The notes under the pieces were generated by a model that did not search any database, was not told the DNA's origin, and worked only from the letters and a program-made list of their open reading frames with translations. Position numbers and translations under genes: made by a program. From contig JBDRBU010000083.1 in the NCBI GenBank assembly GCA_043822305.1, positions 1 through 21,892 of the forward strand: 21,892 nt of DNA, read 5' to 3'. Source of the stretch: Candidatus Firestoneibacteriota bacterium. Lineage in GTDB: Bacteria > Oederibacteriota > D2-FULL-39-29 > JBDRBU01. Below, piece by piece: positions 281 to 21,892 of the stretch. The first letter of the stretch is position 1, and every line of letters starts with the position of its first letter.

Positions 281-754
281 TCAGTCACAAATAACTACTG
301 AACCATCAGGGCCGTTGTATGTAAAATGCCAATGCAAGAGAATATCACGCCCAATCAGACAATCAAAATTTTTAAGAGGACAAGAAACAATCGGGATCTC
401 TTTGCCATTACCCCAAGGGAATATGATAAAACCATAATAAACAGGTTGCTGTTGTTCATCTTGAACTGAAGAAACTTTTTGAAAACCTGTGTGAACAAGT
501 CCAAGTTGATCAGCCACACGAGGTGTTATTACAGTACCACTTGCCCCTGTATCAATTAAGGCATTTACGCTAACTGTTGGAGCACTTTTCCCCTGTTGTT
601 TAAAATTTTCTTGAACAATCCGAGGATGAGTAATGGTAACTTTGATAAAAGCCCCCATTTGATTTAAAATGACTGGCGGTGGAATCTGGACTATTAATTC
701 TTTACCATCTTTCTCCACTTTACTCTGACCACCATACCTGTATGTATTTATCAT
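281..754 (-). CDS. Retropepsin-like (clan AA) aspartyl protease
   Basis: Catalytic motif ALIDTGAS and C-terminal LIGRDIL. Start moved from 787 to ATG 754, which has GGAGGA 6 nt upstream. Confidence 0.85.
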   Translation of the reverse strand: MINTYRYGGQSKVEKDGKELIVQIPPPVILNQMGAFIKVTITHPRIVQENFKQQGKSAPTVSVNALIDTGASGTVITPRVADQLGLVHTGFQKVSSVQDEQQQPVYYGFIIFPWGNGKEIPIVSCPLKNFDCLIGRDILLHWHFTYNGPDGSVVICD

Positions 755-778
755 AGCACATCCTCCATAATGAATCTC

Positions 779-798
779 CCCCACCATAAATGGCGGGG
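779..798. repeat. GC-rich palindrome flanked by ATCT direct repeats
   Basis: CCCCACCAT-AA-ATGGCGGGG (one mismatch). ATCT at 774-777 and 800-803. Confidence 0.8.
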
Positions 799-842
799 TA
801 TCTTCTCTGCAAGGAAAATATATTATTTATGGTGCCAATTCA

Positions 843-865
843 CCCTGTACCAATATGGTGCAGGG
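843..865. repeat. GC-rich palindrome flanked by TTCA direct repeats
   Basis: TTCA-CCCTGTACCA-ATA-TGGTGCAGGG-TTCA (839-869). The arms resemble the intragenic element in moeA and tupA. Confidence 0.8.
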
Positions 866-870
866 TTCAT

Positions 871-890
871 CCCTGTCTCAAGAGACGGGG
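871..890. repeat. GC-rich palindrome overlapping the stop codon of the 878..1129 gene
   Basis: CCCTGTCTC-AA-GAGACGGGG (one mismatch). On the minus strand it encodes the last residues (PVS) and the stop. Confidence 0.75.
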
Positions 891-1129
891 TATTTCTGAC
901 ACTCCCAGATAAAGTTTAGTGGTTCTTTTTCAACTAAATGATAAACGAGAAAGTTTGCATCTAACCCATATAAACGCACTCCTTCTTCTGCTGCTCGTTC
1001 ATAACTATCATAAGAATCCACTAGTTTTTCCTCAAATACAAGAATGAATTTGTCCTTATGCTCCTTGAGTAAGGATTCTTTGTTTTTATTAACGAAATCA
1101 AGATTTTTCTTCAAATTTTTTTCTCCCAT
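878..1129 (-). CDS. Small hypothetical protein of the type found upstream of clan AA aspartyl proteases (DUF5678-like)
   Basis: 83-aa ORF with KHKDKFILVF..VDSYDSYERA..EG pattern. ATG at 1129 has AGGAGG 8 nt upstream. Confidence 0.65.
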   Translation of the reverse strand: MGEKNLKKNLDFVNKNKESLLKEHKDKFILVFEEKLVDSYDSYERAAEEGVRLYGLDANFLVYHLVEKEPLNFIWECQKYPVS

Positions 1130-3538: not shown

Positions 3539-3583
3539 ATTTTTTCTTTTTTTACTTTATTTTCTTTACCTTTTTGTATCCTA

Positions 3584-3606
3584 CGCAGGCTAAAGCCTGC
3601 GGCTAC
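3584..3606 (-). repeat. REP-like element with GTAG foot
   Basis: Minus strand GTAG-C-CGCAGGC-TTTA-GCCTGCG, a perfect 7-bp stem immediately after the GT4 stop codon. Confidence 0.75.
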
Positions 3607-4768: not shown

Positions 4769-4809
4769 ATTTTACCTCCCCCTTGTTAGTAAAAAAAGTA
4801 ATTAAAGTA

Positions 4810-4881
4810 TTTTTACTTTTCTTACTTTCCTTACTTTTCTTACTTTTTTTACTTCCTTTGCTTTCCCCACTTCTTTCACTT
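4810..4881. repeat. Degenerate 9-bp tandem array (YYYYYRCTT x8)
   Basis: tttttactt ttcttactt tccttactt ttcttactt tttttactt cctttgctt tccccactt ctttcactt, preceded by inverted AAGTA units at 4787-4809. Confidence 0.8.
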
Positions 4882-4892
4882 TCTTTATTATA

Positions 4893-5636
4893 CTACATTC
4901 CCCTGGCCAATGTAAAGACTCTTATTTGACTTGCTCCATCACCAAGTAGCATCGAACTACATTCATCTGCTGTAGCGCCTGTTGTTAATATATCATCAAC
5001 AAGTAAAACGCAAGCCCATTTAATTTTTCCCGGATTTCTAATTTCAAAAACTCCTTTAACATTCAAGAATCTATCTTCTTTACTTAATTTATGCTGTGGA
5101 ATAGTTTCTTTTACTCTAATTAAAACATCCGTAAATAAAGGAATTTTAAAATAATCTGCTAAACACTTAGATAATAACTCTGCCTGATTATAGTCCCTTC
5201 CACTTTGTTTTTTCTTATACATAGGAACCGGTATTATACAATCTATGTCATCTACTCCACAATTTTCTTTTATAAACTCTACCATTAATTCACCAAAATG
5301 TTTTGCCAATACTCTACATCCTTTATATTTTAATAAATGTATACCTTCTTTTAAAACACCTTCGTAAATTCCAACTGATCTATTATCAACAAAAGAAAAC
5401 CTCTGTCTTGTGCAATCCGCACAAAAATTTTCATCAGACGAAGTCAACTGTTTACCACAGTAAACACACATTGGATGTTTAATTATTTTTATCTTACCCC
5501 AGCAACCACCACATATAGATCCTTTTCTATCTTTATCTAACTTATCACTACAAATTTTGCAATTTGCAGGAAAAATAATATCTAATATCCCTATTATGAT
5601 ATTTTTTACTTTTTCCACTTTTCCCACTTTCCCCAC
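4893..5636 (-). CDS. comF: ComF family protein (double zinc ribbon plus phosphoribosyltransferase domain)
   Basis: Four CxxC pairs, LKY, IIPVP, R.YNQAELL, LLVDDILTTGAT..EC and terminal VFTLAR. Start ambiguous because several in-frame GTGs lie in a repeat. Confidence 0.92.
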   Translation of the reverse strand: MGKVGKVEKVKNIIIGILDIIFPANCKICSDKLDKDRKGSICGGCWGKIKIIKHPMCVYCGKQLTSSDENFCADCTRQRFSFVDNRSVGIYEGVLKEGIHLLKYKGCRVLAKHFGELMVEFIKENCGVDDIDCIIPVPMYKKKQSGRDYNQAELLSKCLADYFKIPLFTDVLIRVKETIPQHKLSKEDRFLNVKGVFEIRNPGKIKWACVLLVDDILTTGATADECSSMLLGDGASQIRVFTLARGM

Positions 5637-5647
5637 TTATTTTACTA
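5603..5647. repeat. Degenerate 9-bp tandem array (5 units) spanning the sprA-like stop and the comF start
   Basis: tttttactt tttccactt ttcccactt tccccactt attttacta. Encodes the MGKVGKVEKVK N-terminus of ComF. Confidence 0.75.
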
Positions 5648-18187: not shown

Positions 18188-18727
18188 CTACTTCACATAC
18201 TGCTCTAAATCTTTTAATGTGTTAATATTTACAATTCTATCAGCCGGTATCTCTTTAACCTTCATCTGTTTATAAAAGTTTATTATTTTTAAATCCCCTC
18301 TTTCCAAATTTCGTTTTATTGGCTCTATGCAATTTTTTGAATAAATAGCAAATAAAGGCTCAAAGCCCTTATTAGTTTTTGGAACGACCACATCAAACCC
18401 TTCTGATCCGATTATTAATTGTTTTATTAAATCGGGAGCAACATCAGGCAGATCACATGCTATAAAAAAAACTTTAAAACCCGAAGACATGACTAAACCT
18501 GTATATATCCCTCCCAGAGAACCAGCACCAGGAATAATATCTTCTTTCATCTCAACTTTTAAAAATTCATAATCATCCGGTTCATTCGTGATAATAATAA
18601 TTTTATCAAAAAACGGTTTAATGGAATTTATAACCCTCTCGATAAGGGTTTCATAACCTATTTTAAACAACGCCTTATTAGAACCAAATCTTTTACTTTT
18701 ACCACCGGCTAAAATACATGCATTCAT
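18188..18727 (-). CDS. mobA: Molybdenum cofactor guanylyltransferase
   Basis: ILAGGKSKRFGSNKAL, GSLGGIYTGL, ACDLP, EPLFAIYSK and NINT..DL. ATGA overlap with moeA. Confidence 0.92.
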   Translation of the reverse strand: MNACILAGGKSKRFGSNKALFKIGYETLIERVINSIKPFFDKIIIITNEPDDYEFLKVEMKEDIIPGAGSLGGIYTGLVMSSGFKVFFIACDLPDVAPDLIKQLIIGSEGFDVVVPKTNKGFEPLFAIYSKNCIEPIKRNLERGDLKIINFYKQMKVKEIPADRIVNINTLKDLEQYVK

Positions 18728-19956
18728 GACTTTAATAATATATTTACATAATCAAATAATTCAACATCAACAAGACTACCACCCCTGACAAATGAAGTTT
18801 CTTCCGGCAGCATTAAATATCCATCGGCTAAAACCATTGAGATTAAAATACCCGACCCTTGTGGCCCTGTAATTTCTGCTGTCCATCCATCTTTTCCTTT
18901 GCTTACCCACGCACCACCAGAGGGTGCGGGGTTTACTTTTACTCTGACAAACTCTCTCCGGCCTGTTTTTTTTCTATAATCGTTTTTAAAATTTGCTTTC
19001 ACAATTCTTTTCTTGTATGTCTTTCCCATCATTTTATATAAAGCTGGTTTCACAAACTGGTCAAAAGTTACCATAGCTGAAACAGGATTTCCCGGAAGAC
19101 CAAAAATTGCTTTTTGTTTTATTTTTCCAAAAACAAGTGGCTTACCTGGTTTTATAGCCACTCTCCAGATATCAAGACTACCTTTTAATTTAGTTATTAC
19201 ATCTTTAACAAAATCATACTCACCGACTGAAACCCCTCCAGAAGTTATTAAACAATCGTACTTTAACGCCAGTTTGATTTTTTCTTTTAAATCGTTTTCC
19301 GTGTCCTTGGCAATTCCCAGAAGTACGGGAATTGCTCCACAGAGTTCAACTAAAGAATAAAGTGAATAACTATTAGAATTTCTAACTTTTCCTTCTTTTA
19401 GAACTTTATTAATATCAATTATTTCATCGCCCGTAGCCAGTATAGCCACTTCTGGCCTTTTAATAACACTGACTTTAGAAATCCCCAGAGAAGCAAGTAT
19501 CCCTATATCTGGCGGTGTTAAAACTTTTCCAGATTTGATGATTAACTCCCCTGCTTTTACACTTTCTCCTAGAAATCTAATATTTTCACCTTTTTCTACT
19601 TTTCTAAAAACCTTGATGGTTTGACTATCAACAACTTCTGTATCTTCAAGCATGACCACAGCCTCAGCTCCTGCTGGAATTTTCAAACCAGTTCGTATCT
19701 TGACTGTCGTCCGCCTTGCAGAAATTCCATCAACTACATTTAATATAACCGGATTAGTTTTAGAAGCATTATATGTATCATCTGCACGAACAGCATATCC
19801 GTCCATGGCTGAATTATCAAAGTGTGGTATATCTTCAGAAGAATAAATATTTTCTGATATAACTAAACCGGATGTTTTTAAAATAGGCATCTTAAAAGCA
19901 GGTAAAACTTCTACCGAGTTCAATATTTCCAATAAAGCTTCTTCGTATTTTAACAT
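18724..19956 (-). CDS. moeA: Molybdopterin molybdotransferase MoeA
   Basis: P.FDNSAMDGYAVR, ATGDEI, RNSNSY, ITSGGVSVGEYDFV, IKPGKP, FGLPGNPVS and QGSG. Confidence 0.95.
   Translation of the reverse strand: MLKYEEALLEILNSVEVLPAFKMPILKTSGLVISENIYSSEDIPHFDNSAMDGYAVRADDTYNASKTNPVILNVVDGISARRTTVKIRTGLKIPAGAEAVVMLEDTEVVDSQTIKVFRKVEKGENIRFLGESVKAGELIIKSGKVLTPPDIGILASLGISKVSVIKRPEVAILATGDEIIDINKVLKEGKVRNSNSYSLYSLVELCGAIPVLLGIAKDTENDLKEKIKLALKYDCLITSGGVSVGEYDFVKDVITKLKGSLDIWRVAIKPGKPLVFGKIKQKAIFGLPGNPVSAMVTFDQFVKPALYKMMGKTYKKRIVKANFKNDYRKKTGRREFVRVKVNPAPSGGAWVSKGKDGWTAEITGPQGSGILISMVLADGYLMLPEETSFVRGGSLVDVELFDYVNILLKS
18907..18936 (-). repeat. Intragenic palindromic element in moeA
   Basis: Minus strand GTAA-ACCCCGCACCCTCTGGTGGTGCGTGG, followed by a second GTAA. 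The 27 bp at 18910-18936 are the exact reverse complement of 21293-21319. Confidence 0.9.
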
Positions 19957-19977
19957 AAATCACCTCAGGACATAATA

Positions 19978-20553
19978 CTATATATCAAGAGTTTTTGCAA
20001 TCTTTAAACCCAAGTTAAATGCTTTTTTTAAAAAATCAGTTTGTTTTAAAACACTACCTTTCTTATTTACTCCCAGGCAAAAGAGTTCTTCTGTATAATC
20101 AACATCAATTGTAACAAAAAAATTCTGAACAATAGATTTAGCATTATCAAAAAATTTACTAATTTTTGACCCTTCAACAGAAATAAAAACGCCCGGTTTT
20201 CTCTTTTTAATCGGAACTGATTTATAAACATATTTAGCCATCCATAAACATTGAAATCTGTCTATCATTATTTTTGTTTGGGCACTTAAACTTCCAAAAA
20301 ATATTGGCGATGCCAAAATTATGCCCTGGGCCTTATCTATTTTTTTGTAAACCATTTGCAGATCATCGTTCACAATACAAACACCGTCTTTTCTCGCATC
20401 CAAACATTCCAGACAAGGTTTAAGGTTAAGATTGTTTAAAATGATTTTTTCAACATCTGCTCCAACACTTCTTGCTCCATTTAAAGCATGATCAAGCAAT
20501 ATATCCGTATTACCACCAATTCTTGGACTACCGTTTATACCTAATATTTTCAT
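19978..20553 (-). CDS. Flavodoxin-like iron-sulfur flavoprotein / NADPH-dependent FMN reductase family protein
   Basis: MKILGINGSPR.GGNT, PC..C.......C..NDD and ILASPIFFGSLSAQTKIMIDR. Confidence 0.88.
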   Translation of the reverse strand: MKILGINGSPRIGGNTDILLDHALNGARSVGADVEKIILNNLNLKPCLECLDARKDGVCIVNDDLQMVYKKIDKAQGIILASPIFFGSLSAQTKIMIDRFQCLWMAKYVYKSVPIKKRKPGVFISVEGSKISKFFDNAKSIVQNFFVTIDVDYTEELFCLGVNKKGSVLKQTDFLKKAFNLGLKIAKTLDI

Positions 20554-20562
20554 CTTAGTTTT

Positions 20563-20590
20563 ATTATATCATCGAAATACTTATTGTCAA
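20563..20590 (-). promoter_or_regulatory. Consensus sigma70 promoter of the flavoprotein-moeA-mobA operon
   Basis: TTGACA-16 bp-TATAAT with TG extension, 9 nt before the ATG. Confidence 0.7.
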
Positions 20591-20632
20591 ACAAAATATT
20601 TAATAAATTAGTTTTTTTGTCATAATACTCAT

Positions 20633-21379
20633 ATGCTAAAGTTTATATTTTACTTATTTCTTTTATTCTTCCCTTTAAACATATATTCAAAAGATTTAAA
20701 TACAATAATTCTGGCCACAACAACAAGCGTTTATGATACCGGACTTCTTGATGTCATCCTACTTGTCTTTGAAAAAAAAACTGGACTTAAAGTAAAAGCA
20801 ATTGCCATTGGAACCGGACAAGCATTAAGCATGGCCGCCAGAGGTGAAGTGGATATATTACTCACGCATTCTCCAGAAGAAGAAAAAAAGTTCATAAATC
20901 AAGGTTATGGAATAAACAGAAAATTAGTTATGCATAATTACTTTATTCTAGCCGGGCCAGAAAGTGATCCAGCAAATCTTAAACAGGCAACAACCATTAG
21001 CGCTGCCTTAAAAAGAATAGCGGAAACTAAAGCCAATTTTGTTTCGAGAGGAGATAACTCAGGCACACATATTAAAGAAAAATATTTATGGGAAAAAGCT
21101 GAAATAGTCCCTGATAAAAAGTGGTATATTGAGTCCGGGACTGGAATGGCCACGACATTACAGATTGCCAACCAGAAAAATGCTTACTTGTTATCAGATA
21201 TTTCAACATTTCTTGCTTTAGAAAAAAATCTATCTCTTAAAATTTTATTTAAGAATGATAAAGACTTGTTAAATAAATATCATATCATGGAGGTAAACCC
21301 CGCACCCTCTGGTGGTGCGAAATTTAAAGATGTTAATCATGAAGGTGCAAAAGCTTTTTCAAATTTTTTCCTCTCATAG
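20633..21379 (+). CDS. tupA: Tungstate ABC transporter substrate-binding protein, C-terminally truncated
   Basis: LATTTS.YDTGLLD, GTGQAL, D.LL.HSP, MHNYF, FVSRGDNSGTH.KE, GMA.TL..A and LLN.YH..EVNP. Ends abruptly at FFLS-stop where an ATPase frame begins. Confidence 0.88.
   Translation: MLKFIFYLFLLFFPLNIYSKDLNTIILATTTSVYDTGLLDVILLVFEKKTGLKVKAIAIGTGQALSMAARGEVDILLTHSPEEEKKFINQGYGINRKLVMHNYFILAGPESDPANLKQATTISAALKRIAETKANFVSRGDNSGTHIKEKYLWEKAEIVPDKKWYIESGTGMATTLQIANQKNAYLLSDISTFLALEKNLSLKILFKNDKDLLNKYHIMEVNPAPSGGAKFKDVNHEGAKAFSNFFLS
21293..21319 (+). repeat. Intragenic palindromic element in tupA
   Basis: GTAAACCCCGCACCCTCTGGTGGTGCG, identical to the moeA copy and read in the same frame (VNPAPSGGA). 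Confidence 0.9.
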
Positions 21380-21774
21380 GACTACTTCAAAAACCTGATA
21401 AAGGAGAAATTATATTTAATGGGAAAAATGCAAACAAAAATATTTTTAAAAACAGGCAAACAATCGTTACGGTTTTTCAGGAACCACTTTTATTAAACAA
21501 TTCTGTTTATAATAATGTAGCTTTAGGACTTAAACTAAGGAAAATAAATAAAAAAGAAATCGAAAAAATGGTCCAGCCTTGGCTTTCAATATTAGGTATT
21601 GAGTATTTAAAACATAAAAATGTTAAAAAAATCTCAAAAGGTGAATCCCAGAGAGTAAATCTGGCCAGGGCATTTGTTATTAAGCCAAAATTAATATTAC
21701 TTGATGAACCTTTTTCAACGCTTGATACTCCAACCAAAAATGAACTTTTATACGACCCAACTTCCGCAGTTTAA
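21373..21774 (+). pseudogene. tupC: Internal fragment of an ABC ATPase (TupC-like) lacking Walker A and the C-terminus
   Basis: Open frame LIGLLQKPDKGEIIFNG...TVFQEPLLL..SVYNNVALGL...ISKGESQRVNLARAF...LILLDEPFSTLD, which stops soon after the D-loop. No start codon or GxxGxGK upstream. Confidence 0.8.
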
Positions 21775-21892
21775 AAAAAATAGCTCTGGTATCATTGAAG
21801 TTACAACTTTTTATCACTATGTTTTTGATCTCACTGAAAACTTTTTAACATCTAAAGGATTTGAATTTAGTCCTAATTTATTATAAATTTCT

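Follow-up and report, generated by a model that had tools for sequence, protein, structure and literature searches.

Identical 27-mers in moeA and tupA are copies of a short DNA hairpin

How did the same 27 bp come to be read in frame within two unrelated genes? This question is raised by contig JBDRBU010000083.1 of a Candidatus Firestoneibacteriota bacterium (assembly GCA_043822305.1), whose forward strand of 21,892 nt, analyzed at full length, is referred to here as the window. A preliminary description had noted that moeA and tupA share a 27-mer on the coding strand that is translated in both to VNPAPSGGA. The pair is exactly as described, at positions 18910-18936 (-) and 21293-21319 (+) with 100% identity, and the 22-nt core pattern matched twice in the window, compared to 0 matches in 100 shuffles. 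Profile searches of the window proteins identified the Pfam domains PF03453, PF00994, and PF03454 in the moeA product and assigned the tupA product to the TupA-type binding proteins (PF12849). The two 27-mers are copies of a noncoding family of bulged DNA hairpins of 27 or 30 bp with GTAAA at both ends, and we consider it highly probable that this family is real and has been mobile. The features concerned are the following, where C-numbers, here and below, denote contigs of the same genome.

18724..19956 (-): moeA, host gene, 410 aa; the sole tblastn match for moeA in the genome
18902..18936 (-): full 30-bp unit with the boundary pentamers GTAAA and GTAAG, in MoeA domain IV; +10 aa
20633..21379 (+): tupA, host gene, 248 aa, shortened at its C terminus; C7 carries an intact paralogue free of the insert
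21293..21319 (+): unit in tupA, truncated at its 3' end (27 of 30 bp); net +5 aa, with the left arm matching the native VNP(A) codons

The preliminary description took the 27 bp as the unit, but the full unit measures 30 bp and the copy in tupA misses its 3' end. The predicted hairpin was retained, but not its 6-bp stem CGCACC/GGTGCG: in the moeA unit, the stem comprises 10 bp, a single T is bulged out, and the loop has 7 nt (-10.1 kcal/mol, z -4.65). Rfam gave no match in the window at gathering thresholds. In being GC-rich multicopy stem-loops of 20 to 40 bp, the units agree with repetitive extragenic palindromes (REPs).

To catalogue the family, the genome (2.15 Mb, 31.6% GC) was scanned with a two-arm profile at a threshold of at least 25 bits, and the reversed genome served as the control. 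We retrieved 47 units, compared to 0 in the reversed genome, which by our grouping form 38 loci, namely, 34 singles, two pairs, one array of 4, and one array of 5; behind two of the 34 single units lies part of a second unit that scores below the threshold. Most units measure 30 bp (n = 27) or 27 bp (n = 17), both multiples of 3, and one each has 33, 28, and 31 bp; by eye, the 28-bp unit reads as a bulge-less 27-bp form. We claim no P value for the family because the scan favored loops of 4 and 7 nt by 2 bits and because the units share descent. The consensus arms are fully matched by 16 of the 27 units of 30 bp but by only 2 of the 17 units of 27 bp, so that, judged from this divergence, the 30-bp form looks younger. 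With 16 of the 38 loci on the G-rich strand (P = 0.42), there is no strand bias.

Two remnants were also noted. One, at C97:9395, has kept its outer ends but lost the inner hairpin and lies in frame in a mutL-like gene of 598 aa; the other, at C77:28363, consists of the right half only and is intergenic.

Ends, target, and arrays

Both ends of the unit carry the pentamer GTAAA. The dinucleotide AA directly precedes GTAAA at 14 of 19 perfect left ends, compared to 17% genome-wide, and MoeA homologues indicate that the lysine codon before GTAAA in moeA is native; no base preference was observed to the right of the element. When ends with more than two changes were excluded, the first base of the pentamer was G in 28 of 37 left ends and in 31 of 33 right ends. 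This greater variation on the left, together with the right pentamer of the moeA unit, which retains the host G at the fifth base, places the joint inside the pentamer. Variants common to both ends account for only 2 of 46 variant positions, a figure to which later decay would also contribute by unsharing variants.

Five arrays contain unlike or partial units, and in each of them the divergent unit is the 3'-most. Entry of new units at the left target would produce this order, but single units are also truncated more often at the 3' end. Truncations at the 3' end were found in tupA, in fmt, and on C100, whereas the copies in rsmA and ribF are altered at the 5' end.

Position in genes and reading frames

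We called 1,949 genes in the genome and counted as deep in coding sequence those loci within coding sequences of at least 150 aa. This applied to 30 of the 38 loci (79%), and the corresponding share of the genome is 78.5%. Six other repeat families of the same genome were found deep in coding sequence at 1 of 81, 5 of 58, 7 of 43, 6 of 15, 4 of 36, and 4 of 30 loci, and a seventh at 0 of 12; comparison of the hairpin family with the six gave Fisher P values from 0.01 to 1e-19. The family thus neither avoids nor prefers coding DNA and is placed as if at random, unlike the six coresident families. The host proteins include RsmA, RimP, Fmt, PolX, a CheA-like protein, PyrK, TamB, FtsW, a Mur ligase, Fpg, RibF, AroE, LipA, FtsK, and MoaD.

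Among the 31 loci in coding sequences, 19 units have the same orientation as transcription and 12 the opposite one. Four frames are used, with 15, 4, 4, and 8 loci, and the peptides coded in them are VNPAPSGGAW, KPRTFWCVG, LPTHHQRVRG, and FTHAPPEGAG. The frame G|TAA was found at 4 loci only, in every case at a native stop codon, and stops make up 1.2% of GTAAA sites. The sixth frame is open and contains 0 loci, compared to 2.2 expected. Overall, frame use did not differ significantly from the supply of targets (chi-square 9.5, P = 0.09), and five open frames are ordinary for this composition, as they occurred in 1,450 of 2,000 shuffles. The further copies to which the preliminary description had looked therefore exist: the family of 47 units occupies four frames and both strands.

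Net effect on the host proteins

For 13 of the 31 loci in coding sequences, the protein was compared to homologues from other genomes, most of which are only 40 to 60% identical. The comparison gave five whole-unit gains, six smaller gains, one site with no gain, and one unclear site. (i) In MoeA, removal of 30 bp had been proposed to restore RVKV-SKGKDG; the insert indeed amounts to +10 aa with respect to 114 of 119 homologues (+9 for the other 5), and a homologue of 81% identity reads RVKVSKEKDG. Similar gains were observed in AroE (+10 aa, 11 of 12 homologues), LipA (+10, 11 of 11), PolX with two units (+20, 2 of 2), and PyrK (+9 in 3 of 5 homologues and +12 in 2). (ii) TupA, for which about 5 extra residues (about 15 bp) had been proposed, gains 5 aa with respect to 118 of 119 homologues and to its own paralogue on C7. 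RsmA gains 5 aa (9 of 12 homologues), Fmt 4 aa (4 of 5), RibF 4 aa (10 of 12; 120 of 150 further homologues agree and 26 were not anchored), and RimP 4 aa (5 of 6; 83 of 119 homologues agree and 23 were not anchored), and the Mur ligase, with two units, gains 10 to 13 aa (9 of 10). (iii) Fpg shows no gain, and the comparison of a nucleotidyltransferase gave no clear gain or loss. As judged from these alignments, each copy lengthens the protein by 4 to 10 aa at most comparable sites; given the low identity of most homologues, earlier deletions in the hosts may also have occurred at the sites compared. The gaps opposite the inserts align to short nonconserved stretches of solved homologues of MoeA, TupA, and RibF; the sole structural model, based on a 4-sequence alignment, has a pLDDT of 33.6, too low to be of use.

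At two sites, native residues match those coded by an arm of the element. The closest RimP homologue (57% identity) reads YTHAPVNG, where the protein of this genome reads FTHAPISG followed by AGFT, and NPAKF or NPAKW is present in 29 of 117 anchored TupA homologues. Outside the family loci, [FY]THAP does not occur in the proteome of 633,153 residues, and VNPA occurs 6 times. The residues at RimP and the VNP(A) of TupA support guidance by microhomology, which the preliminary description had suggested. This idea stands insofar as native and arm-coded residues coincide and the net gain is only 4 and 5 aa, respectively; either homology directed a swap, or a whole unit was inserted first and a later deletion brought back near-native residues.

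Further irregularities were observed in the host genes. Near residue 80, MoeA is missing 9 aa (27 bp; window ~19690-19725, minus strand) that are present in 118 of 119 homologues, and the surrounding residues are altered. In window 20633-21892, tupA ends at 248 aa and is followed by a tupC remnant in another frame, with no tupB; intact tupABC genes lie on C7, and the tupC remnant stops at a repeat that recurs on C41 and C42. These losses suggest that both hosts in the window may be under relaxed selection. No such signs were seen in fmt, ribF, aroE, pyrK, and lipA, apart from inserts of other repeats. The genes rimP (L020, C19) and fpg (L033, C86) each contain one further insert that is also in frame but derives from a repeat of another family (about +7 and +8 aa, respectively). 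The insert in pyrK (L027, C51:19833-19864) lies between cysteines of the Fe-S motif and adds one cysteine.

Filled and empty sites of a sister hairpin

At the other end of the window lies a related hairpin within a larger element.

770..908 (-): two-hairpin mini-element, IS200/IS605-like, with the sister hairpin inside; the copies on C7, C68, and C91 are empty
839..869 (-): sister hairpin, 27 bp, bulge-less, TGAA on both sides; one of 5 sister loci

The mini-element copies on C7, C68, and C91 miss exactly 27 bp at the sister site, whereas the copy on C107 is filled. This filled/empty pair is direct evidence of insertion, for the sister form only. A corresponding DNA-level empty site for the main family is lacking because the DNA relatives of moeA that were found are only 29 to 46% identical; closer relatives do exist, as is evident from MoeA homologues of 81, 72, and 66% identity. 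Taken together, the genome catalogue, the homologue alignments, and the filled/empty pair of the sister hairpin bear out the earlier proposal that a mobile palindrome of very small size adds peptide inserts to proteins. Three other sister copies have TGAA on the left and TAAA on the right. The mini-element is preceded by TTTAT in 5 of 5 copies, and its right end resembles that of the IS200 element on C64.

Directly behind the mini-element is a stand-alone gene for a retropepsin-like aspartyl protease (window 281-787, minus strand). The window also contains a GTAG-tagged REP at 3583-3606 (-), of which there are several dozen in the genome, some with extra hairpins in their loops.

Comparison with known systems

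In-frame palindromes as such are already known. Rickettsia palindromic elements (RPEs; Ogata 2000, 2002) are described in PMC10969869 and PMC3184786 as palindromes of ~105 to 150 bp that have entered unrelated housekeeping genes without disrupting the reading frame, where more than one frame is used, with nearly half of the copies in open reading frames. The present family resembles them in its in-frame insertion into unrelated genes, its absence from homologues, and its use of several frames; it differs in consisting of a single hairpin of 27 or 30 bp with direct GTAAA ends, in lying deep in coding sequence at 79% of loci, in forming head-to-tail arrays, and in often replacing host codons. 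The preliminary description had rightly pointed to RPEs but understated the prior art, since REPs of 20 to 40 bp, single and grouped, some of them inside open reading frames, are on record in the portion of PMC3733652 that deals with them. With GTAG/CGTC REPs the family shares the size of 20 to 40 bp, a GC-rich stem with a tetranucleotide at its base, the bulge, the variable loop, and the tandem groups. Unlike REPs and REPtrons, it has a GTAA tag at both ends, is mostly intragenic rather than intergenic, and flanks no transposase gene that was found in this draft assembly.

The right end of the genome's IS200 is likewise a bulged GC stem with a TCT loop and a GGGTAA tail, but the family differs from IS200/IS605 mini-elements in having one hairpin rather than two ends, in its lack of guide/cut pairing, and in its absence of strand bias. 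The small dispersed repeats of Nostoc (Elhai et al. 2008), set beside the family here by description only, are probably nearest in size and differ in phylum and target. Such repeats measure 21 to 27 nt and nest within themselves. One of them, SDR5, is treated in part of PMC4390886 as a very small mobile repeat with precise insertion into a short target. The GC clusters of yeast mitochondria (GC42) are, in the account excerpted from PMC4478555, short GC-rich palindromes of an AT-rich genome, single or tandem in a short target, whose mechanism is unsettled; they are organellar, and a constraint on the stem has been shown for GC42 but not for the family studied here. By eye, the SRM motif does not match the unit, and the Ssn-like gene of this genome carries other repeats.

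The family thus works like an RPE or an intragenic REP but is not an RPE by size, nor a GTAG REP by tag, place, or partner. What distinguishes it is its indifference to coding DNA beside families that avoid it, the very small size of its unit, whose two ends carry the same pentamer, and its frequent replacement of host codons. How tiny palindromes such as REPs and RPEs move is an open question, for which this family provides a plain case with one target, 38 sites, arrays, and a filled/empty pair. In addition, selfish DNA that adds or replaces 4 to 10 residues in housekeeping enzymes amounts to a natural scan of insert tolerance.

Proposed mechanism and alternatives

We propose, with about an even chance of being right, that the hairpins spread as single-stranded DNA by means of a host HUH nuclease of the Y1 type, as found in REP-associated tyrosine transposases (RAYTs), which would cut and rejoin within GTAAA. 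A donor unit would be copied or excised as a single piece, and its target would be an A-rich GTAAA, with the upstream portion belonging to the host. A joint within the pentamer common to unit and target would add 27 or 30 bp and regenerate the target, which would account for the head-to-tail arrays. Where the host DNA has further likeness to an arm, exchange or a later deletion would replace host codons and leave +12 or +15 bp. With five of six frames open, most landings would survive, and those in the frame G|TAA only on a native stop codon. Under the tag scheme of one REPtron, the GTAA tag would direct the cut to T|A or T|T, inside the junction.

This route is favored because the anatomy of the family, with a bulged stem that has a tetranucleotide at its base, and its tandem growth and variable junctions match reports on TnpA-REP. 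In the parts of these reports concerned, the bulge is needed by Escherichia coli TnpA-REP and tag positions 2 to 4 choose the cut in one REPtron (PMC8266576), and tandem copies and variant junctions can arise by TnpA-REP strand transfer (PMC3333891). The genome contains six Y1 genes above the Pfam cutoff, namely, one IS200 TnpA and five RAYT-like genes. Together with the GIY-YIG genes considered below, they leave few candidate enzymes within this genome, so that the mechanism is testable with oligonucleotides and a few small proteins.

Several observations weigh against the Y1/HUH route. In the draft assembly, no unit was found near any of the 7 Y1 matches; the IS200 and four RAYT-like genes are flanked by other repeats, and for the remaining RAYT-like gene, on C68, the flanks were read with approximate bounds only. 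The tag GTAA falls outside the GTAG variants (GYAG, GYRG, GTRG, GTMG, and GTGG) in the list taken from PMC3733652. The ends of IS200/IS605 elements follow a guide/cut pairing rule of the IS608 type. This rule fits the IS200 ends and the host mini-element of this genome but not the ends of the family. The two strands are used without bias, whereas IS200/IS605 insertion is described as favoring the lagging template. A cut inside the tag itself is hard to reconcile with cutting in cis. In addition, the stem of the family shows decay with almost no compensatory change, and at 7 of the 13 compared sites the gain falls clearly short of whole units, which a plain insertion would not produce.

The smaller gains would be accommodated by an enzyme-free process, which we regard as possible but doubtful. 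Hairpins of single-stranded DNA arising in replication or repair would anneal to short homologies and be copied by template switching or gene conversion, and slippage would enlarge the arrays. RimP (YTHAPVNG against FTHAPISG-AGFT, net +4, with [FY]THAP otherwise absent from the proteome), the frequent NPAKF or NPAKW of TupA homologues, and the failure to find either a cognate transposase in the genome or a strand bias are all consistent with it. However, MoeA, AroE, LipA, and PolX gained whole units cleanly with only the pentamer shared, and the sharp right boundary and the upstream AA preference, which lie outside the shared bases, fit a site chosen by a protein. A different enzyme, a small GIY-YIG nuclease of the Ssn type that would nick the hairpin before host repair joins it, is an improbable agent. 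Of the two small GIY-YIG genes found, the one at C78:39107 is closely preceded by a hairpin whose stem arms are those of the sister form, and Ssn nucleases are reported in part of PMC11893778 to cut single-stranded DNA at their own hairpin repeats; the same source, however, puts forward Ssn mobilization as a hypothesis only. Furthermore, the hairpin at C78 has a different loop and no TAAA ends, and the other gene, Ssn-like and located on C85, has SRM-type repeats of its own on its flanks. The SRM search motif starts with GTC, and the unit does not.

A constant 5' end and a ragged 3' end would result if a transcribed hairpin were reverse transcribed from a nicked A-rich target, and the 3' truncations in tupA, in fmt, and on C100 and the 3'-most position of the divergent unit in five arrays are in line with this. 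Such an RNA route is nevertheless quite improbable: the sole reverse transcriptase found is that of a diversity-generating retroelement beside Avd, units occur in both orientations to transcription, and the copies in rsmA and ribF are altered at the 5' end. There is very little likelihood that a double-strand transposase or recombinase duplicated a target of 4 to 5 bp. The pentamer on both sides of the unit and the TGAA that borders the window's sister copy left and right would fit a duplication, but the two ends share few variant bases (a pattern to which later decay may contribute), three sister copies differ between left and right, and genome searches gave no match to TnpB or IS110. That the family is an artefact of assembly or chance has a negligible probability, even in a draft metagenome assembly, in view of 38 loci with graded divergence between the 30-bp and 27-bp units, intact frames, a stop frame solely at real stops, and empty and filled sites within one genome. 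The birth of the unit from rimP codons was rejected, since a local fold-back would yield a perfect inverted copy and not the asymmetric arm of the family.

In a more specific reading, a minimal, coding-neutral hairpin, heedless of gene boundaries, would settle at sites with codons already similar to its arms (THAP in RimP and VNPA in TupA) and, by a one-step, homology-guided swap, would take the place of native loop residues, even in Fmt, RibF, and the Mur ligase, through an undescribed nuclease pathway with a GTAA tag. We offer this reading only tentatively and think it rather unlikely.

Occurrence in other genomes and in the literature

Among relatives, none of them from the same family, the 22-nt pattern was found in 0 of 40 genomes and a looser pattern in 0 of 98. 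The exact pattern had 0 matches in metagenome contigs and 1 in genome contigs (L053). There, at L053:1501-1560, a look-alike hairpin with another loop lies in frame in murD, directly after a second hairpin; this genome has one further weak match, equal to the control. A shorter pattern had 38 viral matches, none with the right end of the family, and a fuller pattern had 0. Lacking that end, the viral matches were read as terminators or chance and rejected as family members. A plasmid scan gave two matches, which is the chance level. No title or abstract start in the searched literature describes the family; the consensus and intragenic lists of PMC3733652, which lay outside this search, may hold a similar repeat.

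Other repeats of the genome

Runs of a purine-rich 9-bp repeat lie at gene ends in the window (4800-4880 and 5593-5646), and similar runs occur on C26, C103, and C119. Elsewhere in the genome, we noted a CRISPR-like array with regularly spaced repeats (C39:22520-23270) and repeated tRNA-like 5' fragments at C9:18167 and C102:18664-29328. The diversity-generating retroelement (L070, C65:3641-6927) comprises Avd, the reverse transcriptase, and flanking target-like genes, and related repeats are present on C62.

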